A stretch of 54,076 nucleotides of DNA from Candidatus Poseidoniaceae archaeon (GCA_049623485.1 JBMZTB010000003.1:1-54076); one strand, 5' to 3'; shown: positions 16,463 to 32,150, counted from the first letter of the stretch. Notes: generated by a model from the letters alone, not told the origin. Numbers and translations are program-made.

Positions 16463-16738
16463 ATGAACGTCATCATCTTCCTAATTGGATTGGTTTTCTT
16501 TGGAGGTCTTCTAGCATTGGTCTATTGGGGATATTGGAATGCGAGAAAGCTTGATGCTCAAATTGCACGAGGCGATCCGAGTCTTCTAACAACCAATACC
16601 TATCGGAGAGAAGAAACCATACAAGCACCTGCAGGATCGATTATTCAAGAAGGTCAACTAATCCAAGTTCAGGGACAATTCGTTCAACCTGTACAACATC
16701 AACCTCGAGTTGTTGTTCAGCAAGGGCCGTTACAATAG
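16463..16738 (+). CDS. Small membrane protein, hypothetical (N-terminal TM, Gln/Val-rich tail)
   Basis: 'VIIFLIGLVFFGGLLALVYWGYW' forms one TM helix. The ATG lies 1 nt after the pyrF stop. No recognisable family. Confidence 0.45.
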   Translation: MNVIIFLIGLVFFGGLLALVYWGYWNARKLDAQIARGDPSLLTTNTYRREETIQAPAGSIIQEGQLIQVQGQFVQPVQHQPRVVVQQGPLQ

Positions 16739-17398
16739 TCCATCAAGATGGCCTTGCTGATACGCAACGCCTGCGCCAGCCCCAACAAGAAGAAGGAAAA
16801 TCAAAAAGTTTCGAAGTCTTTTCTTTTTCTTTGGTTTCGCTGCAGGCGCCTCTGTTGAAACGGTCAGTTCCAATGGAGGAAGTTCTTCCAAAGGTGGGAG
16901 TTCAGCGAGAACTGGAAGTGCAGGTAAAGCGTCATCAGGCTCAACTTTGATTCTATCTTCTGGATACAATTTATCCAAATCTTCCAGCCCAGGTGCTTCT
17001 GGAATATTCCCCAGTACTTGATCCCAAATTTCATCCAATTGAGACTGTGTAACTGGTTTTGTAAGCCATCCAACAGCTCCTGCCGAGTATGTTGCTTGCT
17101 CGGCGAGATCTGAGAGTCGATTTGGAGCGATGAATAAAATCCTCGAGTCCCCGCCGTGCTCTCTCATTTCAAGGGCTGCCAAATGCCCGTCTAATGATGG
17201 GATGTCAAGTGACATGACAACCAGTTCAGGATTGATGCGAATGTACTCGTCGACTGCCACGTCCCCATCTTCGCAAACAACGAGAGCAAAACCACGCTTT
17301 CGAAAGACCTCTTTCAGCCTCATAATCGACATCTGATTGTTATCTACAATGAGCACTGTTGGTGCGTCTTCGGATGAAACTTCACTTACGTAAGACAT
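16730..17398 (-). CDS. Response-regulator receiver (REC) domain protein with Pro/Leu-rich linker and C-terminal TM anchor
   Basis: 'TVLIVDNN', 'LVVMSLDIPSLDG' (phospho-acceptor Asp context) and 'GWLTKP' (conserved Lys). The tail is 'LPALPVLAELPPLEELPPLEL...KPKKKKRLRNFLIFLLLVGAGAGVAY'. The ATG at 17398 is preferred over the TTG at 17407. Confidence 0.75.
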   Translation of the reverse strand: MSYVSEVSSEDAPTVLIVDNNQMSIMRLKEVFRKRGFALVVCEDGDVAVDEYIRINPELVVMSLDIPSLDGHLAALEMREHGGDSRILFIAPNRLSDLAEQATYSAGAVGWLTKPVTQSQLDEIWDQVLGNIPEAPGLEDLDKLYPEDRIKVEPDDALPALPVLAELPPLEELPPLELTVSTEAPAAKPKKKKRLRNFLIFLLLVGAGAGVAYQQGHLDGLL

Positions 17399-17462
17399 CG
17401 CAACCAAGTCGTCTGACTTGTTTCTTGCTCATCAATCAACCGATGGTATTTGTTGAAAATGT

Positions 17463-20196: not shown

Positions 20197-23058
20197 GTGC
20201 GAAGCGCTTTTCTTCTTGTCTTCCTCTTGGCTGCACCGCTCTCAATGGTGCACGAACAAGGTCCTATCGAACTTGAAGGGGAGGAAGTATTGCTTACGCT
20301 ACCTGGTGGTGAACTGTGGACGCAAACGGCATGGGAAGAGGCGATTCAACGAGGATATATTCCTCTGAGAATTGTGTCTCCAACTGAACTCGTTGCATGG
20401 AAACTCGAACGAGCGTACCAATCATTCTACGGAATTGAATCTGAAAATGAACCAGCCCATTGGCAATCAGTTCCCATGAAAGGACAATCTGTTGCTCTTG
20501 TTTTCGAACCAAATTTACCCGAGCAAATTCAACAAGATATCATTGATCGAATCGCGGAGCGAATCGATATTTCAATTCTCCACCTTGCCTATGATGCTGT
20601 TTTACCTCATGTTACAATCGAATGGAATGAAGTTTATTCAATCGAATGGTTTTCTGAAATAGACGGCCTTCTATGGCTGGAGCCCACCCTCGAAACTGTG
20701 AGTAGAAACCTCGAGAGTGCACTTCAACTCTCATCACCAAATTCTGATTTTGATTCTCCACTTGCTTGGGAATTGGGATTAAATGGAAGTGGGGTTGTCG
20801 TAGGCATCGCTGATTCTGGAATCGATGCCGATCACTCCTGCTTTAGGAACCTAACAAGCGATAGCACTGGAGATTCGCAACGTAAAATTCTGCACATCAA
20901 TACCACAATTGATGATTGGGATTCTCAAGGACACAGCGATTACCGACATGGGACCCACACTGCAGGTTCGATAGGTTGCCACCCCGTATCGACTGCGGAA
21001 GAATATCAAATTCCTTCTGCTGCTATGGCCCTTGGATATGGAACGAAACTTGTCGTACAAGACATCGTTTCACAGGAGGGTTGGCTCCCTCCAGATGTTG
21101 ATTATTTACTCCTCGAATCATCTGAATATGGGGCTGTCTTACATTCAGATTCTTGGGGAGATGATACGACAGAATACACACTTCGATCTGGTGATTTCGA
21201 TGCATTTACTCGGGAGTATCCCTGGTCGCTTCCTCTCATCGCTCCAGGAAATAACGGTGGAGAGGTCCTTGAGCCCGCAAACGCAAGGAATGTCATTGCT
21301 ATTGGAGCATCTACCAAAGATGATGACCCTAGACGTTGGGATTCATCCGTTCATGGTCCTACAGAAGCTGGTACTAGGGGCGTTTTCGCCCTTGCCCCTG
21401 GTGTTTCAATTACTTCCGCACGATCAGATGGTCAAAACAACACTTGGAATTCGGGGCATCACACCCTTAGCGGTACAAGTATGTCCACGCCAACCGCTGC
21501 TGGATTCGCCAGCATCTTAGAACAGATGGTGCGGGACGGTTGGTTCACAGGTCACAATGAATCATTAGTCAACATTGATTCTCGAACTCTTCAGCCATGG
21601 TTTTCAAACACCCCTTCATTCCAACATGACCTCCTTCTTGGGGAAGGGTTTACTCCCTCAGCGCCTCTTTTGAAGTCGCTTCTATCACTCTCAACAACTC
21701 CATTGTCGGAGGAATTCAGAAATGGGGGGATGGGCGGAGGTCTGTCTCCAAATTCCTACGATGGATGGGGGCGTTTGAACCTCTCAGAAGTGATTGATAT
21801 CGAAGAGGTTCAAAACGATTTGATGCAGGGGGATGTTCGCCCAATTGAAAATATATGGATTCATGATTCTTATCGATTGGAAAACGGGAGTCCGCTTGAT
21901 CTAATTCATCAGAGAAAAGGTGCCGATGAACCGCTCGAATCACTTCTGTCTATCCCGTGGGATGGGACAGAAGCGCAAGGCCCTTTTTTGGGAACTGGCG
22001 ATGTTTTTCAGCAGCGTTTTATTCTTCAACAGGGTCAAGATCTTGATATTCGCATGGCATTTCAAGCCAAGCCCGAACCCCACATGGTTGATGACTTACA
22101 ACTTCTCGTAAAATTACCAGATGGTAGATTTGCCGTTGGAGATACCTACAAAGAAAATGGATTTTCAATGTTGTATTATGATTTTGCAGATCCTTCGAAT
22201 ATGAGTGCATTTCCAAACTCAAATGAAACAACTGTTGGCGTCTCACTCTCTGCTGAAAGCTTAGATTCAAGTGATTGGGTTGATGTTTATGTTGTTGGAA
22301 GATACATAACCCCTGGGAATGTCCCTGATTCGATTGGTGTTGAAGGAAATAAGGTTGGTTTTGGAATGGCAATTCAAGGCGTCGTCCTCGACCCTGTGGG
22401 GCACACAGACGCCGATAATGATGGAGTGCCCTATGAGAGTGATTTGTGCCCATTCACAGACGCTAGTTCTTGGGACGTGGATCAGGATGGTTGCATCGAT
22501 GACAGCGATGACGATGGTGTTGTCGATTCAATAGACGACTGCCTCGGCACAATGAAGGAAACCCCAGTTCAAGAAAACGGGTGTATGGAGACAAATAGTG
22601 TCCCGCAAATCTTCTTTGATTCATCTCAATTACAAAATCACAATAATACAACAATTCCTTTGACATTCTCTGTTCTTGATGAGGATATTGTTGATGTTAC
22701 TATCATCCTCGAACGCTCAAATGATTCAACGATTGTTGTGGATATCTGTTCAGTTGTTATCGAGAATGATTCATGGCAAACCTGTAATGTCGTTGTTGCG
22801 GATGCCTTTTTCCCACTCTCTCCAAATGGTGAATGGGTGGTTGTCATTCAAGCCTTTGATCGCAATACAAGCTGGTGGACTGAAGCGGAATCGAATCTGA
22901 TTAAATCCCCTGCGTTTACAATCGAAAAATATGAAATCAGCCAGATTGATGCAAAGGAGCCTTCTGGGTGGTTTTTGACATCGATTTTGTCAATCCTTGT
23001 TCTTTCGCTCCTTCTTTCTGTATTTTTCCAGATTTTGACCCGTGAAAAGGTTGACTGA
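20197..23058 (+). CDS. Secreted subtilisin-like (S8) serine protease with thrombospondin-type-3-like Ca-binding repeats and a C-terminal TM anchor
   Basis: Catalytic triad contexts are 'VGIADSGIDADH', 'HGTHTAGS' and 'SGTSMSTPTAAG'. 'DADNDGVPYESDLCP...DVDQDGCIDDSDDDGVVDSIDDC' forms the repeats. GTG start follows GAGGAGGT, with signal peptide 'AFLLVFLLAAPLSMV' and C-terminal 'WFLTSILSILVLSLLLSVFF'. Confidence 0.88.
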   Translation: MRSAFLLVFLLAAPLSMVHEQGPIELEGEEVLLTLPGGELWTQTAWEEAIQRGYIPLRIVSPTELVAWKLERAYQSFYGIESENEPAHWQSVPMKGQSVALVFEPNLPEQIQQDIIDRIAERIDISILHLAYDAVLPHVTIEWNEVYSIEWFSEIDGLLWLEPTLETVSRNLESALQLSSPNSDFDSPLAWELGLNGSGVVVGIADSGIDADHSCFRNLTSDSTGDSQRKILHINTTIDDWDSQGHSDYRHGTHTAGSIGCHPVSTAEEYQIPSAAMALGYGTKLVVQDIVSQEGWLPPDVDYLLLESSEYGAVLHSDSWGDDTTEYTLRSGDFDAFTREYPWSLPLIAPGNNGGEVLEPANARNVIAIGASTKDDDPRRWDSSVHGPTEAGTRGVFALAPGVSITSARSDGQNNTWNSGHHTLSGTSMSTPTAAGFASILEQMVRDGWFTGHNESLVNIDSRTLQPWFSNTPSFQHDLLLGEGFTPSAPLLKSLLSLSTTPLSEEFRNGGMGGGLSPNSYDGWGRLNLSEVIDIEEVQNDLMQGDVRPIENIWIHDSYRLENGSPLDLIHQRKGADEPLESLLSIPWDGTEAQGPFLGTGDVFQQRFILQQGQDLDIRMAFQAKPEPHMVDDLQLLVKLPDGRFAVGDTYKENGFSMLYYDFADPSNMSAFPNSNETTVGVSLSAESLDSSDWVDVYVVGRYITPGNVPDSIGVEGNKVGFGMAIQGVVLDPVGHTDADNDGVPYESDLCPFTDASSWDVDQDGCIDDSDDDGVVDSIDDCLGTMKETPVQENGCMETNSVPQIFFDSSQLQNHNNTTIPLTFSVLDEDIVDVTIILERSNDSTIVVDICSVVIENDSWQTCNVVVADAFFPLSPNGEWVVVIQAFDRNTSWWTEAESNLIKSPAFTIEKYEISQIDAKEPSGWFLTSILSILVLSLLLSVFFQILTREKVD

Positions 23059-23145
23059 ATTGGTTTTTATCGTGTAAAATTTCCTTGAGAGCGGAGGGCT
23101 ATATTGAAACCGTATGGCATCCACGCCTGTATATCCGAGAAGGTG

Positions 23146-24156
23146 ATGATGATGAGTGAGCGATTATATGTTGGAATTGATTTAGGAACCTTTCAATCGA
23201 CAATTGCATCCAGTGCGGGTGCCATGCATTCTATTGAGACAGTTGTAGGACGACCAAAAGACCCAGTTGCTCGCAACTTCTTGAAGCGTGATGTTCTCTT
23301 CGGAGCAGATGCGTTGAAGAACAAACTTGCTTGCAACCTATACCGTCCTATGGCTGCTGGTGTTGCACAAGATGATGAAGCAAACCTGGCTGCTGCTAAG
23401 GCATTCGTTTCCCACCTCATCGAAACAGTAGATCCTGAAGAGTTCGACGAAGTATTCGGAGTAATTTGCTCTCCAAGCCACGTTTCATTTACTGACAAGA
23501 GCAACCTTGTTGCTACGCTACGCGGTCAAGTCAACGCAATTATGGTCGTTACAGAACCATTTGCAACTGCATTTGGAATCGGCGAAATTGGCGGTTCAAT
23601 CGTTGTTGACGTAGGAGCAGGTACAACTGACATCGCCCGCATCCACGGTACATTCCCAACCGATGAAGATCAAGTTACAATTCAAGAGGCTGGAGACTGG
23701 CTCGATATTGAACTCATGACTCTTATCTCAAAGAAATTCACTGGTGCTCAAATCACCAAGGACATGGTTCGAAAGTGGAAGGAAGAATCCTCCTATGTTG
23801 GAGGAGACACACGAACTGTTGAAGTCAATTTGAGTGTTGATGGAAAGAATCAAACCGTCGATATCGGTGATTTGATCCAAGAAGCTTGTGAACTCCTTAT
23901 TCCAAAGGTTGGAAACGCAATCAAGAGAATCGTTGCTGAAGCTGACCCTGAATACCAGCCAGTTCTACGAAACAACATCATTCTCTCCGGTGGAGGCTCC
24001 CTCATTGAAGGGCTTGCAGAGCGAGTCGCACGAGAGATTTCAGACATCGGTGACGTAAACGTCTGGTGTGTTGAAAACCCACTCGAAAAGGTTGCAGAAG
24101 GTGCTCTCATGCTTGCTGGCGAAATGCCTGATGACATGTACACCGCAATCAACTGA
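23146..24156 (+). CDS. Actin-fold cytomotive ATPase, MamK-like (MreB/MamK clade)
   Basis: Phosphate-1 'LYVGIDLGT', 'VVGRPKD', 'VVTEPFATAFG', phosphate-2 'IVVDVGAGTTDI', 'GTFPTDEDQVTIQEAGDWLD', 'PEYQ', adenosine 'ILSGGGSLIEGLA' and 'GDVNVWCVENP'. Each has a near-identical counterpart in MamK as I recall it. The ORF-track start at 23104 is TTG; the ATG run at 23146-23154 follows AAGGTGA. Confidence 0.75.
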   Translation: MMMSERLYVGIDLGTFQSTIASSAGAMHSIETVVGRPKDPVARNFLKRDVLFGADALKNKLACNLYRPMAAGVAQDDEANLAAAKAFVSHLIETVDPEEFDEVFGVICSPSHVSFTDKSNLVATLRGQVNAIMVVTEPFATAFGIGEIGGSIVVDVGAGTTDIARIHGTFPTDEDQVTIQEAGDWLDIELMTLISKKFTGAQITKDMVRKWKEESSYVGGDTRTVEVNLSVDGKNQTVDIGDLIQEACELLIPKVGNAIKRIVAEADPEYQPVLRNNIILSGGGSLIEGLAERVAREISDIGDVNVWCVENPLEKVAEGALMLAGEMPDDMYTAIN

Positions 24157-24248
24157 TTCGGTTCGTCGTTTTCACCTTAAAATCGGGGCTATTTGCCCTT
24201 CTTTGACAGGGAAGGTTCAAGAGTGGTTGTGTCTCGATAGGGTACTGT

Positions 24249-25523
24249 ATGACGCTCGGCGCTGCAAATTCAGGCTCCAACCATGGACAATCCTCTGGGA
24301 ACGACCGAGCTGCGCTTGAAGGTATGCTCAAAGGGTACCCAATCGAGCAACTCGTCGAAGAAGTTCTCATCGCTTGGGATGAATTAGGACGTCGAAATGA
24401 GGAGGTTGTTACACTCAAGCAACGCCTCCGTGTCTTGGAACTCGATCTTGCTGAGCGAGAGGATGATGTCGCTCCTGAAATCCAACGTCTGCACCAAGCA
24501 GATGAACAATTGAAAGAAGCAGATGCTCGAATAGTCCATCTTGAACGTTTGCTCAATGATAGTCGGGCTGAACTCGATGCTCAAGCATCATCTCTCTCCA
24601 AAGAACAACAAGACGCCCTTCACGAAGAGGTTGCTCAATTACGAGATCTTAGCGTATCTCAAGATGATGTTATTTCTGAGATGGAAGGACGAATGGGTTT
24701 GATGGTCGAGGCTTTGGAAAAAGCAGCGGACGCTGGTCTTACTTCTGTTACCGCCGACGAGGTTCGTTCGCTCAAGAACAAACTGGACGAACAAACAGCA
24801 CATTACGAAGCGGAAGTTGCTGCAAACAATGCCCTTGAAGAAGAGCGACAGCGGCTAAGAGACATCGCAGATCGTATGCGTGGATTACTTGATGCTCGAG
24901 ACCAACGTTTGGCAGACCTCGAAGAGCAACTCGAGCGTGTGATGCAAGGTCCTCGCTCTGTCTCTGCAGAGCACGATTATTTAGTTGAGCAAATCGAAGA
25001 AATGAAACGTCGTTTGCTTGAAAGAAACCGTGAATATGAATCTCTACGACGTCGCGAACGCCGACTCCACACTGATGTCTTTGAGCGAGATGAGCGTATT
25101 CAACAGATGTCGCTCACAATCACTGATCTTGAGGCTGCACTCACAGACCGTGTTGCTGAGATAAGAGAATTAGAATCACAAAATCACGTTGCTATGCAAG
25201 AAGTTGATAGCGTTCGTAGAGGCGAGCGCACTCGTGAAGTTGTGGGACGAGTCTTTGCAGATTCCCTTTCATTGGTTCGCGGCCACGATGCCAGAGAAGC
25301 GAAGAGAGAAGCATATGCAAACTCTCCTGACGTAAAGCGAACTCTTTCAACACCTTCTGCGGAAGATATGCAACACCTCGCAGAAGGAGGGCGTGTGCAA
25401 CTCGATGTTGATGAAGACGAACTCCAGAGTGGAATGGATGTTGATGAGGCAAGACCACCGTCACCAGGTGGAAGCGGTGATCCTGTACTCTTTGATGAAG
25501 AATCAGAGAGCGCTGATGAGTGA
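24249..25523 (+). CDS. Acidic coiled-coil protein, hypothetical (424 aa)
   Basis: Heptad-like E/R/L/Q-rich sequence runs through most of the length (e.g. 'LKQRLRVLELDLAEREDD', 'LADLEEQLERVMQG', 'ITDLEAALTDRVAEIRELESQ'). The C-terminal tail is acidic ('DEDELQSGMDVDE...FDEESESADE'). No TM segment. Confidence 0.65.
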   Translation: MTLGAANSGSNHGQSSGNDRAALEGMLKGYPIEQLVEEVLIAWDELGRRNEEVVTLKQRLRVLELDLAEREDDVAPEIQRLHQADEQLKEADARIVHLERLLNDSRAELDAQASSLSKEQQDALHEEVAQLRDLSVSQDDVISEMEGRMGLMVEALEKAADAGLTSVTADEVRSLKNKLDEQTAHYEAEVAANNALEEERQRLRDIADRMRGLLDARDQRLADLEEQLERVMQGPRSVSAEHDYLVEQIEEMKRRLLERNREYESLRRRERRLHTDVFERDERIQQMSLTITDLEAALTDRVAEIRELESQNHVAMQEVDSVRRGERTREVVGRVFADSLSLVRGHDAREAKREAYANSPDVKRTLSTPSAEDMQHLAEGGRVQLDVDEDELQSGMDVDEARPPSPGGSGDPVLFDEESESADE

Positions 25524-26348: not shown

Positions 26349-26969
26349 TCATTCAGATGAAAGTTTTCTGATGTCTGCGGCGACGCTTTCTGAATCCCAT
26401 TCTGATTGAAGCCACTGTACTCGAACATCACGGTCGACATCAACAAGGACCGCATGTACTGTGTGAGTTACTGTGTAATTCATCAAATGGATTGAACAAC
26501 GAGCAAGAGAATCTGTCAGATTCGCAGATACCTCCACAGAGGTGCCGAAGGATGCCCAAACTGATTCGATCATTTCAAGTTCAGAATTGATATTGCTAAC
26601 AGTAAGGTGTGGCCATTCAACACTGTTGTTTCTTTTGTAGTGGTAGAGTCGGTTACTATCATCGTGCCATGGATCTGTTGTAATAGTGAGAAGAGAGACT
26701 TTTTGCTGTTCTTGAGATGAAAGAAGATTGTATGTTTCATTCATAGACGTGGATAAATCATCACATTCGTTAAGACAAGATGTGTGAATAAAGCCGACCA
26801 TAATTACGTCTGAATCGACCATTGACAGATTGAATTTATCTCCATTTTCGTCGAATAATTCGAAAGGAGAGATTGGTTTTGGCTCCAATGTGTTGCCATA
26901 GAAATCGGTCGTTCCGATGCATCCTGAACACAGCATCGCCACTGTCATCGCAGCAATCAGTATACGCAT
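26349..26969 (-). CDS. SCO1/SenC-type thioredoxin-fold copper chaperone, putative lipoprotein
   Basis: CxxxC in 'FIHTSCLNECDD' plus a downstream His ('YTVTHTVHAVLVD'). Signal peptide has a lipobox-like 'MLCSGCIG'. Confidence 0.65.
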   Translation of the reverse strand: MRILIAAMTVAMLCSGCIGTTDFYGNTLEPKPISPFELFDENGDKFNLSMVDSDVIMVGFIHTSCLNECDDLSTSMNETYNLLSSQEQQKVSLLTITTDPWHDDSNRLYHYKRNNSVEWPHLTVSNINSELEMIESVWASFGTSVEVSANLTDSLARCSIHLMNYTVTHTVHAVLVDVDRDVRVQWLQSEWDSESVAADIRKLSSE

Positions 26970-26973
26970 AGTT

Positions 26974-29295
26974 TCACTTCTTACGACGTTTTATTCCTGC
27001 GCCGATTAAAGCCAAGAAAAGAATTGAAAAACTCACATCAACAATGAATTCTTCGATTTCATAGTGATCAATGAGATAATCCATTTCTGGAGCGAAGGAG
27101 TACAGTATCGCTCCACCACCAGGTGGTCCTCCGCCACCTCCGCCGCCACCGCCTTGGCCGCCTCCAACGTCCTGGCCAGCGACGTCCGCAACGCCGTGAT
27201 AGCAGAGAAGGAAGTATGGGAATCCAATCATCCCCACAGTTTGTCCATTGGTATCGGTTACCATAGTTGGAGAACCAGAGAGAGGGGTGCTGACATAGTG
27301 ATAAATTCCATCAGGATATTCTGGAGTTGGTCCAAATCGTCCATTGCATTCGTCTAGGTCGCCGACCCCATCAACATAATTCCAATCATCAATTCCATTG
27401 TAGCCTTGATCGCCTCCTTCTTGAGTGCGCTCAATTGCATAAGAAGATGTGATTGCTTTCAATGAGGTTTGATCGTCGTTGTAGCCATACATCCCGTAAA
27501 TGGGATAGCCATCAAATGCCCATCCAATAATTGGACTGTGTTCATCACTCTTGATCTTTGAAGGGTCGTAATCTTCCATTGTCTCCCCGGCTTCAGGTTC
27601 CCAATACACACAGTTTGCGTCATAGTGGTAATGGTAGCCCCCTTGGCCAGCAGAGTGTCCTGTACACCATCCAAGAGTTATTGGCTGTCGGTTTTCGGTG
27701 AAATATTCGAAGTGAAGTGCAACTGCATCTCCCCCTGGTCCTTCCTCTGGACCAAAGATTGGAGCACCATTGACTGACATCGCAACAGTTCCTCGGTCTG
27801 GAACACATTCCCAACGCCCCGCTGAAGCTGGGCAGTTTGTTGTATCGTGCCCTCCTGTAGTGTCATTAACTGGATTTAGAGGAAACGTCGCCGTGTAGTC
27901 CATCTCCGGAGCGCAACAACCCATTGTGCTCAAGAAATCGTGATTTGGAATTCCATTACTATCAACAATCATTTCGTTGTTTTGAACCGTAACAGAGACT
28001 TCGCATTGGAACCATGGCCCGGAACCGCCCCCCCCTGGGCTGCTCACGCCGTTTGTGTTTGCAGTGTATCCGTTTCCATCCCCGTTGAAATCCTTGACCC
28101 ATGGGCCTTGTCCATCCGTACACATCCATGAGTCCTCGGGTGCCCAATCAGGCAATGTGCAACCATCTGGACCGACTTGTTCACCGGAAGGTGTATTGGG
28201 GCATTGGTCAATATCATCAGAAATTCCATCGCCATCCGTATCCTTTTGTGAATCTGAACAGCCAGAAGAATCGACTTGTTCGCCCAGCGGCGTGTTTGAA
28301 CATTGGTCAACTGCGTTACTTACTCCATCATTATCAGCATCGAGCTGGTATTGTGAACATCCATCGGGATTGACTGCTCTGTTTAGTTCTGTATCAGGAC
28401 ACAAATCGACATCATTCATGACGCCGTCTTGGTCAGAATCCGTCTCTGAATCAGAACATCCAGTTCCATAAACTGGCTCATCGCTTGGTGTGGCATCGCA
28501 ATCATCGTTCAAATCTGGGATACCATCGTTGTCTGAATCGGTTGAAGATGGTGTCACTGGAAGATCTACACGTAGTGTTTGAGAGGATATTGTATAAAGT
28601 CCACAATCGGCAATAATATCGCCTTCAGTGTTCGTCGTAGAAACATCAAACAGAATCGAATAAGTTCCCGTTGTTGTGTTCACTTCTCCGATGATTGAAT
28701 TTGAAGAGCTTACTCCAAGAGGGTGATACTTGATTGAGCAGGTCTCTGGGAATTGATGTAGAATTGCCCCCGAGATGAGACCTATTGTCTCGTTCTCCGC
28801 AGGCTCTGTCCAAGAAAATACCACATCTACATCTCGTTCATCAGGAACATTGACAATGTATTCAATAAGCCGCTCAACGCTTGCTGATTCTGAATCTGTG
28901 GCCTGAACTCGTACAAGCCATTGGCCTGGTTCCGATTCGGAGAATTCAACCTCCCAGAAACCATTCCCTTCAGTTTGAGTTGTTATCGTTGCAAGATATG
29001 GAGAGAAATCTTGGTTGAGCATAGTGATTTCAAGCGATACACTCGAAGGGGCTTCATCCACAACATATCCTTGGAGGGTATGGTTTACTCCAGTCCAATC
29101 TGATGTTCGGTTTTCCACTAAGATTGTTGGTTCAACATTCTCTGGCGGGATTTGAATCCCTCCTTGATCAACCTCATCATTCTGTGATTCTGTATCGTTT
29201 TTTGATTCTTCATCATTTGAGGATAAGGCAAAGACTGCGATTGATGCACCTACGAGAAGCGCCATCAAAATGACCGAAGCAAGTTTGTTATCCAT
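26974..29295 (-). CDS. Surface protein: Ig-like N-terminal region, thrombospondin-type-3-like repeats, YHYH domain, poly-Gly linker and C-terminal TM anchor
   Basis: Repeats read 'DSDNDGIPDLNDDCD', 'DSDQDGVMNDVDLCPDT', 'DADNDGVSNAVDQC' and 'DTDGDGISDDIDQCPNT'. YHYH motifs are 'GQGGYHYHYDANC' and 'DGIYHYVS'. The linker is 'GGGQGGGGGGGGGPPGGG' and the anchor is 'FSILFLALIGAGIKRRKK'. Confidence 0.75.
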   Translation of the reverse strand: MDNKLASVILMALLVGASIAVFALSSNDEESKNDTESQNDEVDQGGIQIPPENVEPTILVENRTSDWTGVNHTLQGYVVDEAPSSVSLEITMLNQDFSPYLATITTQTEGNGFWEVEFSESEPGQWLVRVQATDSESASVERLIEYIVNVPDERDVDVVFSWTEPAENETIGLISGAILHQFPETCSIKYHPLGVSSSNSIIGEVNTTTGTYSILFDVSTTNTEGDIIADCGLYTISSQTLRVDLPVTPSSTDSDNDGIPDLNDDCDATPSDEPVYGTGCSDSETDSDQDGVMNDVDLCPDTELNRAVNPDGCSQYQLDADNDGVSNAVDQCSNTPLGEQVDSSGCSDSQKDTDGDGISDDIDQCPNTPSGEQVGPDGCTLPDWAPEDSWMCTDGQGPWVKDFNGDGNGYTANTNGVSSPGGGGSGPWFQCEVSVTVQNNEMIVDSNGIPNHDFLSTMGCCAPEMDYTATFPLNPVNDTTGGHDTTNCPASAGRWECVPDRGTVAMSVNGAPIFGPEEGPGGDAVALHFEYFTENRQPITLGWCTGHSAGQGGYHYHYDANCVYWEPEAGETMEDYDPSKIKSDEHSPIIGWAFDGYPIYGMYGYNDDQTSLKAITSSYAIERTQEGGDQGYNGIDDWNYVDGVGDLDECNGRFGPTPEYPDGIYHYVSTPLSGSPTMVTDTNGQTVGMIGFPYFLLCYHGVADVAGQDVGGGQGGGGGGGGGPPGGGAILYSFAPEMDYLIDHYEIEEFIVDVSFSILFLALIGAGIKRRKK

Positions 29296-31211: not shown

Positions 31212-32150
31212 ATGAGTAACATGCTAAATCATAGCGATACTAAACTACGAAGCCTGAAGTTAAACCGTCGTAACAGCGTTCTATTTGCTGTTCTGATGCT
31301 TTCACTTACTGCAGTTGCCATGCCAGCAGCAGCAGAAATAATTAATCCATCCGCAGAGTGTAAAACAAATGAGCTCACTGGAGAGGAAGAATGTCCATTT
31401 TTGAACGACGGAAGTAACGACGGTCTTGAACTTGTCACTTTCTTCCTCTTCTTCGTTGGTTACATCTCAATGGGTGCAGCTTTCGTCTTCTTCATGAGTG
31501 AAAGAAGCAACGTCGCTAAGGAATACAGAACAACCATGACAATCTCTGCATTGATTGTTGGTATTGCTGCATTCCACTACTACTACATGCGTGGTGTTTA
31601 CGTCGACCATCAAGTCGTATCTGTTGAGTACCGTTACATGGACTGGATCATTACAGTTCCGTTGATGGCTCTCAAGTTCCCAAGCCTTGTCGGCAAAGAT
31701 GCAATCACTGACGCCAAGTTCGCCGGACTTGGCTTCACTGGTATCTGCTTCACAGGTGCTCTCATCATGATTGGATTCGGATATGTCGGAGAAGCTGGTC
31801 TCATGGACGGTTACCTCGCACTCATCCTCGGAGGAGTCGGTTGGGCTATGATTATGGTCGCTACAGGTCTTCCATTCGGTCTCTATGACGGTCTTGGTGT
31901 TGATAACAGCAAGATCAAAGACGAACTCAAGTGGAGTACTGATGCACTTCGAACATTCATCCTCGTTGGATGGATCATTTACCCACTCGGTTACCTCTTC
32001 AGCCCAGAAGTCGATATCATTGATATCGGTGCCAAAGGAGAACTTTGGATGGGTATTGCATACAACATTGCTGACATGATCAACAAGATCGGTTTCGGTG
32101 TAGTTGCATGGATGGGAGCCAAGAAGGCTACCGAAGCATTGAACGCTTGA
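31212..32150 (+). CDS. Proteorhodopsin-type microbial rhodopsin (D-T-K helix-C motif, Met tuning residue)
   Basis: Helix C 'RYMDWIITVPLMALKF' aligns without gaps to proteorhodopsin 'RYIDWLLTVPLLICEF'. Helix B is 'FHYYYMRG'. Helix G 'AYNIADMINKIGFG' carries counter-ion D288 and Schiff-base K292 (AAG at 32085-32087). D144 is GAC at 31641, T148 is ACA at 31653, M152 is ATG at 31665 and K155 is AAG at 31674. Confidence 0.9.
   Translation: MSNMLNHSDTKLRSLKLNRRNSVLFAVLMLSLTAVAMPAAAEIINPSAECKTNELTGEEECPFLNDGSNDGLELVTFFLFFVGYISMGAAFVFFMSERSNVAKEYRTTMTISALIVGIAAFHYYYMRGVYVDHQVVSVEYRYMDWIITVPLMALKFPSLVGKDAITDAKFAGLGFTGICFTGALIMIGFGYVGEAGLMDGYLALILGGVGWAMIMVATGLPFGLYDGLGVDNSKIKDELKWSTDALRTFILVGWIIYPLGYLFSPEVDIIDIGAKGELWMGIAYNIADMINKIGFGVVAWMGAKKATEALNA

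Follow-up and report, generated by a model that had tools for sequence, protein, structure and literature searches.

What does an actin gene do in a planktonic marine archaeon when it resembles the magnetosome filament gene mamK, has no magnetosome genes among the neighbors scanned and is followed at every locus examined by a gene for a long coiled-coil protein? The question is raised by a stretch of 54,076 nucleotides (nt), referred to here as the window, from Candidatus Poseidoniaceae archaeon (GCA_049623485.1 JBMZTB010000003.1:1-54076). The source is a Poseidoniales (Marine Group II, MGII) archaeon, and its nearest proteins in the databases are named Candidatus Poseidoniaceae, Thalassarchaeaceae or Poseidoniales. 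The Poseidoniales are uncultured, they are among the most abundant planktonic archaea, and to our knowledge nothing is known of their cell biology. A prediction made from the window alone (the original prediction) had proposed that the actin and an acidic coiled-coil protein form a filament-plus-adaptor system. The analysis described here leads us to think it somewhat probable that the two genes encode a functional filament-plus-partner module that is specific to the Poseidoniales. The two genes are:

23152..24156, plus strand: clade A Poseidoniales MamK-like actin of 334 amino acids (aa), with the start taken from an alignment of eight lineages and from the public record
24249..25523, plus strand: Poseidoniales-specific coiled-coil partner of 424 aa, directly 3' of the actin gene

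The Actin Is MamK-Like

Among the NCBIfam models, MamK (NF040964) is the top match of the actin (333.7 bits, E 1e-99), followed by BeeR (208 bits), MreB (69-80 bits), salactin (34 bits) and ParM (17 bits). The actin is below the curated cut-off of each of these families, i.e., 400 bits for MamK, 530 for BeeR, 400 for salactin and 417 for ParM; the MreB models have cut-offs of 366 (TIGR00904) and 293 (PRK13927), and the actin reaches 69 and 80 bits, respectively. It also falls short of the Pfam salactin cut-off (25.6 vs. 27.1 bits) and of the volactin cut-off (23.6 vs. 35 bits), and the most divergent member of its clade (L077) scores 330.6 bits on the MamK model. In Pfam, the top match is MreB_Mbl (82 bits, cut-off 27), with Actin at 58 bits, because Pfam has no MamK model.

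The solved structures give the same order. MamK (5jyg, 5ljv and 5ljw) is the top relative by sequence (206 bits, HMMER), ahead of the BeeR filament protein 8r2n (135 bits), the MreB chains (38-56 bits) and the eukaryotic actins (about 30 bits). The actin and MamK align pairwise with 34% identity over 328 residues and with a single one-residue gap. The HMMER alignment to 5jyg/5ljv contains VVGYPKD, VVSEPF, IVDIGAGTTDI, GTVPGPEDQVTLTKAGNYVD, PEYQ, GGGSRIRGLA and GDANVTCVKDP, so that every segment named as a MamK motif in the original prediction is found there. An AlphaFold model of the actin (predicted local distance difference test (pLDDT) 79, predicted template-modeling score (pTM) 0.77) has as its top Foldseek match the MamK filament subunit 5ljv_A (template-modeling (TM) score 0.87/0.90, root-mean-square deviation 2.9 Å, E 9e-33); BeeR (8r2n) is second, and MreB and actins come after it. 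No chain of Ta0583, the Thermoplasma actin that had been set apart from this protein from the beginning, occurs among the 41 PDB sequence matches or the 50 Foldseek matches listed. MamK is therefore the nearest family in profile searches, in sequence comparison and in predicted fold, well ahead of MreB, salactin, ParM and Hsp70, and these results confirm that the actin is MamK-like and neither MreB-like nor Ta0583-like.

The nucleotide sites of the actin, comprising the phosphate-1, phosphate-2 and adenosine motifs as well as DLGT, DxGAGTTD and GGGS, are aligned and conserved. Residues E143 and D161 of MamK, which we take to be the residues mutated to abolish ATPase activity, correspond to E135 and D153 of the actin (334-aa numbering), and both are conserved. 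The residue at the position of MamK A278 varies across the family; the window actin has Pro here, and the KSB1 proteins have Asp, Gly, Ser or Asn. According to the title of PDB entry 5ljw, MamK with the A278D mutation does not polymerize.

The original prediction had located the correct open reading frame (ORF), and only its start has changed. A GTG at 23143 had been proposed, giving 337 aa; the alignment of eight lineages indicates that the start kept across relatives is the ATG at 23152, which yields a 334-aa product with the N-terminus MSERLYVG. The public record of the source contig (P0415) also lists a 334-aa product. The other in-frame starts of the ORF are at 23143, 23146 and 23104.

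Like MamK of Magnetospirillum, the window actin has the actin fold, a near-gapless full-length alignment, the nucleotide motifs and no membrane-targeting extension. Unlike it, the window actin is below the family cut-off, belongs to a different clade and has a coiled-coil partner instead of MamJ, McaA/B and MamY. Salactin and volactin resemble the window actin in being archaeal actins outside the crenactin/Asgard line, and MamK is reported as the closest subfamily to salactin, which affects DNA partitioning in Halobacterium (PMC10746226). However, salactin has a long charged N-terminal tail, which the window actin lacks.

The Coiled-Coil Partner

The second ORF is as originally described: it encodes 424 aa, it is on the same strand and the spacer is exactly 92 nt. 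Three parts of the partner gene stand out:

24306..24491, plus strand: conserved N-terminal block (partner residues 20-81) with near-invariant columns, RAALEGMLKGYP.EQLVEEV..AW.EL...RLRVLELDLAERE
24723..25178, plus strand: most conserved central block (residues 159-310), which includes the helix breaks AGLTSVT and GPRSV
25452..25520, plus strand: RPPSPGGSGDPVLF motif and acidic disordered tail (residues 402-424), a candidate docking peptide

AlphaFold predicts that the partner is about 80% helical. The helices span residues 17-357, with long helices at 32-115, 118-161, 169-233 and 239-357, and they are followed by a small element at 362-391 and by a disordered tail at 396-424 (pLDDT <50). The monomer model has a pTM of 0.21, as expected for a rod. 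The helix is broken at 162-168 and 234-238, and the sequences at these breaks, AGLTSVT and GPRSV, are themselves conserved. The net charge of the partner is -43, and its Asp plus Glu content (23%) is the highest of the 40 window proteins. Consequently, the earlier description of a strongly acidic, almost entirely coiled-coil protein with an acidic disordered tail is supported by the model and by the charge, but a low isoelectric point (pI) is not distinctive; the value of 4.6 is ordinary in a window proteome with a median of 5.2.

Overall, the partner sequences are 62-88% identical, and residues 20-81, 159-310, 322-347 and the RPPSPGGSGDPVLF motif at 402-415 are near invariant. R402, P403, P406, G407, G408, G410, D411, P412 and V413 are invariant in the 17 partner sequences. 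This pattern led us to infer that the C-terminal peptide may be a docking site.

The partner has no Pfam family, no PDB sequence match and no Foldseek match against the PDB with an E value <2. A hidden Markov model (HMM) built from 125 partner sequences matches clade A loci only and nothing at the paralog B loci (see below) or in bacterial relatives, and tblastn agrees. For the same reason, remote homology to the coiled-coil neighbors of other clades was rejected, i.e., the HMM matched nothing outside clade A loci. The sub-threshold matches are to SMC (TIGR02169, 37 bits vs. a cut-off of 729, E 7e-10) and JetC (17 bits). They cover coiled-coil segments only, and no ATPase head or Walker motif was seen in the partner. 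The public labels are generic, 'chromosome segregation ATPase' (JGI) and 'myosin heavy subunit'. The analogy to MamJ that was drawn originally has no sequence or structural basis, as the partner matches no known family (MamJ, Mad20-26 and McaA/B were not compared by sequence). MamJ itself is known as an acidic protein of repetitive sequence and is not known to form a coiled coil.

The Two Genes Are Together at Every Locus Examined

The partner gene is directly 3' of the actin gene and on the same strand in 85 of 85 loci, with a spacer of 89-105 nt. These loci consist of 10 genome loci (the window, L081 and eight GTDB species representatives) and 75 metagenome contigs that reach at least 400 nt past the actin gene. 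Clade A actins with identities as low as 73-75% retain the partner. The context 3' of the partner differs in 14 of 55 evaluable loci, where genes are inserted or PcrB is absent, and no break between actin and partner occurs in any locus examined. The original prediction had named outcomes that would count against it, and on two of them, i.e., best profile hits without affinity to MamK and a downstream gene that is not syntenic in relatives, the results came out in its favor.

Both genes are also well conserved in sequence. The identities of the window proteins to their counterparts in L081, in the L060-L079 lineages and in L077, respectively, are:

Actin: 95%, 85-87% and 75%
Partner: 88%, 72-76% and 63%
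FtsY: 87%, 66-71% and no value
L18Ae: 78%, 67-77% and no value
ABC transporter: 79%, 67-69% and 64%
PcrB: 73%, 59-63% and 57%
Prefoldin: 75%, 36-42% and no value
S8 protease: 56%, 41-47% and 36%

The actin is the best-conserved gene of the block, and the partner is second in most comparisons and level with L18Ae in some lineages. Within the public clusters named Poseidoniaceae and Thalassarchaeaceae, the actin identity is 94-99%. Both actin and partner are under strong purifying selection.

A Member of a Mostly Non-Magnetotactic Family

A neighbor-joining tree was built from 161 sequences, and bootstrap values were obtained with a 57-taxon subset (200 replicates). Clade A, which contains the window actin, is monophyletic (100%) and is the sister of a second Poseidoniales clade, clade B (82%). 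A weak node (60%) links these two to the long KSB1-type actins of bacteria. Clade A grouped with the clade of the AMB-1 MamK, the only verified MamK in the tree, in 0 of 200 bootstraps. Several bacterial non-magnetotactic homologs are above the MamK cut-off (Planctomycetota 432, Omnitrophota 429, Thermodesulfovibrio 405 and Kuenenia 404 bits), whereas the archaeal homologs are below it (Methanoperedens 395, ANME-2 371, paralog B 362 and clade A 331-334 bits). When one genome per GTDB species was scanned, the MamK-like family turned up in many phyla without known magnetotaxis.

A Pfam scan of the 26 predicted proteins between ~6.9 and 42.2 kilobases (kb) of the window detected no mam-type domains (in the sense of mamA/B/E/I/L/M/O/P/Q), in agreement with the original prediction, and the scanned neighbors of the actin are housekeeping, transport and rhodopsin genes only. 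The assignment to MamK was thus right about the nearest family, but the protein lies outside both the curated family (334 vs. 400 bits) and the verified-MamK clade. The window actin is a member of a broad, mostly non-magnetotactic MamK-like radiation, and it is not a magnetosome MamK.

Absent from the original prediction is a second Poseidoniales MamK-like actin, paralog B, which makes up clade B. This protein has 341 aa (for example, L045:7995-9020 from Ca. Poseidonia alphae), is 44-47% identical to the window actin and gives 362 bits on the MamK model. It was found at 10 loci (L024, L028, L029, L033, L035, L045, L050, L058, L066 and L069), and one 90% cluster of it has 1,474 members named Poseidoniaceae and Thalassarchaeaceae. 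Because both paralogs are named from both families, they are likely to co-occur in one genome. Paralog B is therefore like the window actin in its order and families and as a sister clade, but it has a higher MamK score and a different neighbor. No coiled-coil gene is 3' of it; instead, a 352-aa protein with N- and C-terminal zinc ribbons is encoded ~100-150 nt 5' of it in all 10 loci. A gene for a 277-aa protein with no family assigned precedes the zinc-ribbon gene in seven of them.

Other branches of the family have linked genes of their own:

Planctomycetota: conserved gene for a 210-290-aa coiled-coil protein, 80-380 nt upstream (34 loci)
Nitrospirota, Desulfobacterota, Gemmatimonadota, Thermoanaerobaculia, Rokubacteria and Schekmanbacteria: Amidase_3 gene immediately 5' of the actin gene, in many cases overlapping it (18 loci)
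Methanoperedens: gene for an Arch_fla_DE-plus-coiled-coil protein downstream (two of two loci)
Poseidoniales clade B: gene for a 352-aa zinc-ribbon protein, 5' of the actin gene (10 of 10 loci)

The KSB1-type bacteria differ in that the actin domain itself carries, as a fusion, a long N-terminal extension that is acidic and rich in Glu/Pro. Close linkage to a clade-specific partner is thus general among the MamK-like actins. The non-magnetotactic MamK-like actins, such as saltatorellin of Saltatorellus and those of Planctomycetota and Nitrospirota, are like the window actin in belonging to the broad family, in lacking magnetosomes and in having a clade-specific linked partner. The Planctomycetota case also involves a coiled coil, but there the gene is upstream, its 210-290-aa product is not detectably similar to that of the Poseidoniales gene and the actins pass the MamK cut-off (404-432 bits). 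Saltatorellin, a planctomycete MamK-like protein, assembles into filaments in two heterologous hosts, E. coli and Magnetospirillum (bioRxiv 10.1101/817700). The magnetotactic Desulfovibrio magneticus has two actin-like proteins, MamK and Mad28, that function together with Mad proteins of the coiled-coil type (PMC12748827).

Some details of these linked genes can be added. Examples of the planctomycete coiled-coil gene (including Kuenenia and Brocadiaceae) are L026:7071-7850, L016:64-687 and L054:6924-7802. The C-terminal motif of its product is approximately REV.NLQRRI.KLT.SL..TE.RL..VA..KNIDDGI.SIYR.VQGL, a sequence that is unrelated to the Poseidoniales partner. The Amidase_3 product is a membrane-anchored N-acetylmuramoyl-L-alanine amidase (e.g., L064:6797-8005, L062:4913-6109 and L061:6134-7282), a linkage that hints at a cell-wall remodeling role in those bacteria. 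The Methanoperedens gene (L018:9003-9614 and L032, the latter ~37 nt after the actin) encodes 203 aa, with an archaellum FlaD/E domain (E 3.5e-14) followed by a coiled coil. The nearest relatives outside the Poseidoniales are actins of 523-1254 aa, one homolog of which is named candidate division KSB1; in these, the actin domain is preceded by a conserved helix at the N-terminus, a long Glu/Pro-rich acidic linker and a basic patch. In three KSB1-type loci (L083:4864-13716, L084:10001-18682 and L085:2844-11525), the genes that follow encode a second actin of 346 aa, three Roadblock/LC7 proteins, one of them with PatA_N, and a small GTPase of the Arf/Ras-like type. This cluster of actins, Roadblock proteins and a small GTPase has no magnetosome genes in any of the three loci.

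Elements Before and Between the Genes

Four short non-coding features accompany the pair:

23094..23109, plus strand: degenerate copy of a conserved element 5' of the actin gene, GGGCTATATTGAAACC in the window and AAGGTGAACCTTGAAG in most relatives
23141..23145, plus strand: GGTGA, a Shine-Dalgarno-like ribosome-binding site 6 nt 5' of the conserved ATG
24185..24205, plus strand: short hairpin GGGGC-TATTT-GCCCT and a T-rich run just 3' of the actin stop codon, a possible partial terminator
24208..24229, plus strand: conserved spacer element GGGAAGGTTCAAGAGTGGTTG, 31-44 nt 5' of the partner start

The ribosome-binding site had been recognized previously, and it is conserved as GGTGA in the alignment of eight lineages, in which its G, T and G are invariant. 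The octamer CTATATTG, which had been taken for a TATA-like box, did not hold up. It lies within the element at 23094..23109, most relatives have GAACCTTG at this site and the site is not A/T-rich in most lineages. A small upstream ORF that begins at a TTG within this element was considered and rejected, as its frame relative to the actin varies (the window and L072 share the actin frame, and L071 does not). A TCCGC-NNN-GCGGA hairpin lies between the element and the ribosome-binding site in L060-L079-type lineages; the window and L081 do not have it.

In the spacer, a hairpin of 4-6 base pairs and a U-run are at the same relative place in seven of the eight lineages, although the stem sequences differ, and a role as a partial terminator is only suggestive. 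The element upstream of the partner, GGRAARGTTCAAGNGYGGTTG, is 31-44 nt before the partner start across the loci. The 12-mer TTSAAGNGYGGT is present in 72 of 76 spacers and has no other occurrence in 611 kb; as a motif common to both genes, it was rejected because it occurs upstream of the actin in 0 of 77 cases in the metagenome sample. However, the actin element AAGGTGAACCTTGAAG and the spacer element share the core GAAnnTTsAAG, which is found at 70 of 87 clade A actin sites (51-60 nt before the ATG) and in 68 of 86 spacers. Elsewhere in 792 kb, the core has 14 matches against 12 expected, the chance rate. The elements might serve as a promoter, a regulator site or a leader. This pattern suggests two co-regulated transcription units, possibly with read-through.

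How the Module Might Work

As noted above, the actin can be regarded as a divergent representative of the broad MamK-like branch, and most likely it binds and hydrolyzes ATP and polymerizes into MamK-type filaments. The fold and the extreme sequence conservation speak indirectly for ATP-dependent polymerization into two-stranded, non-staggered filaments. We infer that the partner is an elongated, probably dimeric coiled coil with hinges and a disordered acidic C-terminal tail; its rod would reach ~48 nm if about 325 helical residues were fully extended. Most likely the partner binds the filaments, which it could then bundle, regulate or connect with cargo or the envelope. The C-terminal RPPSPGGSGDPVLF peptide is a plausible point of contact with the actin. 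In ParR, arcadin-2 and FtsZ (its C-terminal peptide), it is likewise a short terminal peptide that docks onto the actin-like partner. The weak hairpin and T-run between the genes, along with a related element before each of them, would fit an abundant filament subunit and a co-regulated, scarcer partner.

The module would be expected to serve a core process of the cell, for example division, the maintenance of cell shape or the partitioning of chromosomes, rather than the positioning of an organelle, because the chromosomal setting is a housekeeping one, both named families have the genes and the conservation is extreme. Comparable arrangements are known from the ParM/ParR, AlfA/AlfB, crenactin/arcadin-2, MamK/MamJ and MamK-Mad28 pairs, in which a filament gene likewise is beside dedicated partner genes. 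By analogy, the disordered tail of the partner could carry the docking peptide, although there is no sequence or structural kinship to these systems and no centromere here.

Other Explanations

The two genes might be neighbors simply by inherited gene order, in which case the actin would form filaments alone or with other proteins and the coiled-coil protein would act independently, for example in chromosome organization as an SMC-like rod, or as filaments of its own. We consider this explanation unlikely, but it has a real chance of being correct, and several observations are in its favor and weigh against a functional pair. The ~10-kb block FtsY-prefoldin-L18Ae-S8-actin-partner-PcrB-ABC is collinear across the order, and the S8 protease gene 5' of the actin is equally constant, being adjacent in 53 of 53 evaluable loci without an obvious functional tie. 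Adjacency by itself therefore gives a functional link little support. A conserved element and a possible terminator lie within the spacer, which means that the two genes may be transcribed separately, and the partner has the SMC match and the JGI label mentioned above. Also to be counted on this side, no actin-, DNA- or membrane-binding domain is recognizable in the partner and the polymerization interfaces of the actin are unreadable from its sequence because the A278 position varies. Furthermore, the tree is a neighbor-joining tree with 82% for A plus B and weak deeper nodes; RNAalifold gave no consensus structure for the spacer, the hairpins of which are not significant against shuffles (z-scores); and the similarity of the two upstream elements is a single observation involving eight fixed bases and one two-fold position. 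Other evidence speaks against mere inheritance of gene order. The SMC and JetC matches are limited to coiled-coil segments and are far under the cut-offs, and the ATPase features expected of an SMC protein were not seen. Rearrangements occur right after the partner and never between the partner and the actin, the partner is limited to clade A loci, the two genes are the best conserved of the block and their upstream elements share a core. Taken together, we prefer the explanation that actin and partner function as a module.

If the module is accepted, its task might still be one that is familiar from other systems. Segregation of chromosomal DNA by a machine like ParM/ParR or salactin, in which the coiled coil ties the filament to DNA, is suggested by the actin-plus-adaptor gene pairs that are the standard design for plasmid partition, by the effect of salactin, closest to MamK, on DNA partitioning (PMC10746226) and by a weak PHROG 'partition protein' match (23 bits). 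We regard this as improbable, since there is no centromere-like repeat array near the genes and no recognizable DNA-binding fold in the partner, the ParM and salactin scores are 17 and 34 bits against cut-offs of 417 and 400, and the context is housekeeping and chromosomal rather than that of a plasmid or virus; in any case, it concerns the cargo only and is compatible with the filament-plus-partner explanation. An ordinary MreB that guides envelope synthesis from the membrane as a rod-shape protein would agree with the top Pfam match and with the name 'rod shape-determining protein (MreB)' given by NCBI and JGI, and likewise by the 2012 MG-II entry EHR75765.1, but it is very improbable. MreB is far behind MamK in NCBIfam (69-80 bits vs. 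cut-offs of 293-366, with MamK at 334) and among PDB chains (38-56 vs. 206 bits), and the fold search puts MamK and BeeR above every MreB. Moreover, no mreC, mreD, rodA or PBP-type (penicillin-binding protein) domain was found in the scanned neighbors, and the N-terminus of the actin is too short for an amphipathic helix. A cell-shape role may nevertheless exist by a mechanism other than that of MreB. That the protein is a true MamK that organizes magnetosomes, or another iron-mineral organelle, has next to no chance of being correct even though MamK is its nearest characterized relative: the score is under the family cut-off, none of the 200 bootstraps placed it with the verified MamK, mam-type domains are missing from the scanned surrounding genes, most members of the wider family are from phyla without known magnetotaxis and the host belongs to a lineage of aerobic surface-ocean photoheterotrophs, with a rhodopsin gene 6 kb away. 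Origin from a defense system or a phage was rejected, as there were no meaningful PADLOC or PHROGs matches.

What Is New

The gene itself has been in the databases since the 2012 MG-II genome, where it is called 'Actin-like rod shape-determining protein MreB' (EHR75765.1). No paper was found in the literature that discusses either the MGII/Poseidoniales actin or its partner. MamK-like actins outside magnetotactic bacteria and actin-plus-adaptor pairs are already known kinds of systems; what we did not find described are the order-specific and extremely conserved clade A, its private coiled-coil partner and the second paralog. The public 'MreB' label covers a MamK-type actin that is more conserved than the ribosomal protein of the same block. 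The pair also offers archaeal cell biologists a concrete two-protein system to express, polymerize and image, and it supports the view that the MamK-like actins are a general-purpose filament family, recruited repeatedly with different linked partners beyond the magnetotactic bacteria.

A broader possibility, which we offer tentatively, is that the Poseidoniales have a dual actin cytoskeleton made of two ancient MamK-like paralogs with private partners, A with the hinged ~48-nm coiled coil and B with the zinc-ribbon protein. The A filament would be regulated or anchored through the C-terminal docking peptide, and the combination of a MamK-like actin with a clade-specific partner would be widespread. 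If this were true, the A pair would parallel, in a prokaryote and by independent evolution, the combination of actin with a tropomyosin-like or adaptor protein, and its function would be a core one for the cell. It would also mean that the MamK-like actins and their clade-specific partners represent a widespread and largely unstudied modular cytoskeleton, of which magnetosome positioning is one specialized use.

Neighboring Genes

The genes that surround the pair in the window are archaeal housekeeping genes, including those for FtsY, prefoldin, L18Ae, the geranylgeranylglyceryl phosphate (GGGP) synthase PcrB, rhodopsin, purL/purQ and UvrA. The S8 subtilase gene (20197-23058) encodes 953 aa with a signal peptide and a C-terminal membrane anchor; this protein evolves fast (36-57% identity), and no functional tie to the pair is apparent. 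Two genes at 26349-29295, between PcrB and the ABC transporter, are missing from the close relative L081. One encodes an SCO1/SenC protein, and the other encodes a very acidic (pI 4.05) surface protein of 773 aa that contains thrombospondin type 3 repeats and a YHYH domain; the region marks a local indel within a block that is collinear elsewhere. A bacteriorhodopsin-like (proteorhodopsin-type) gene at 31212-32150, 6 kb 3' of the pair, fits a surface-ocean photoheterotrophic MGII. An Rfam scan of the window found only a tRNA gene truncated by the window edge, with its 3' part at 1-52 (32 bits). Just beyond FtsY, a stand-alone response-regulator receiver protein of 225 aa is encoded at 16730-17407.

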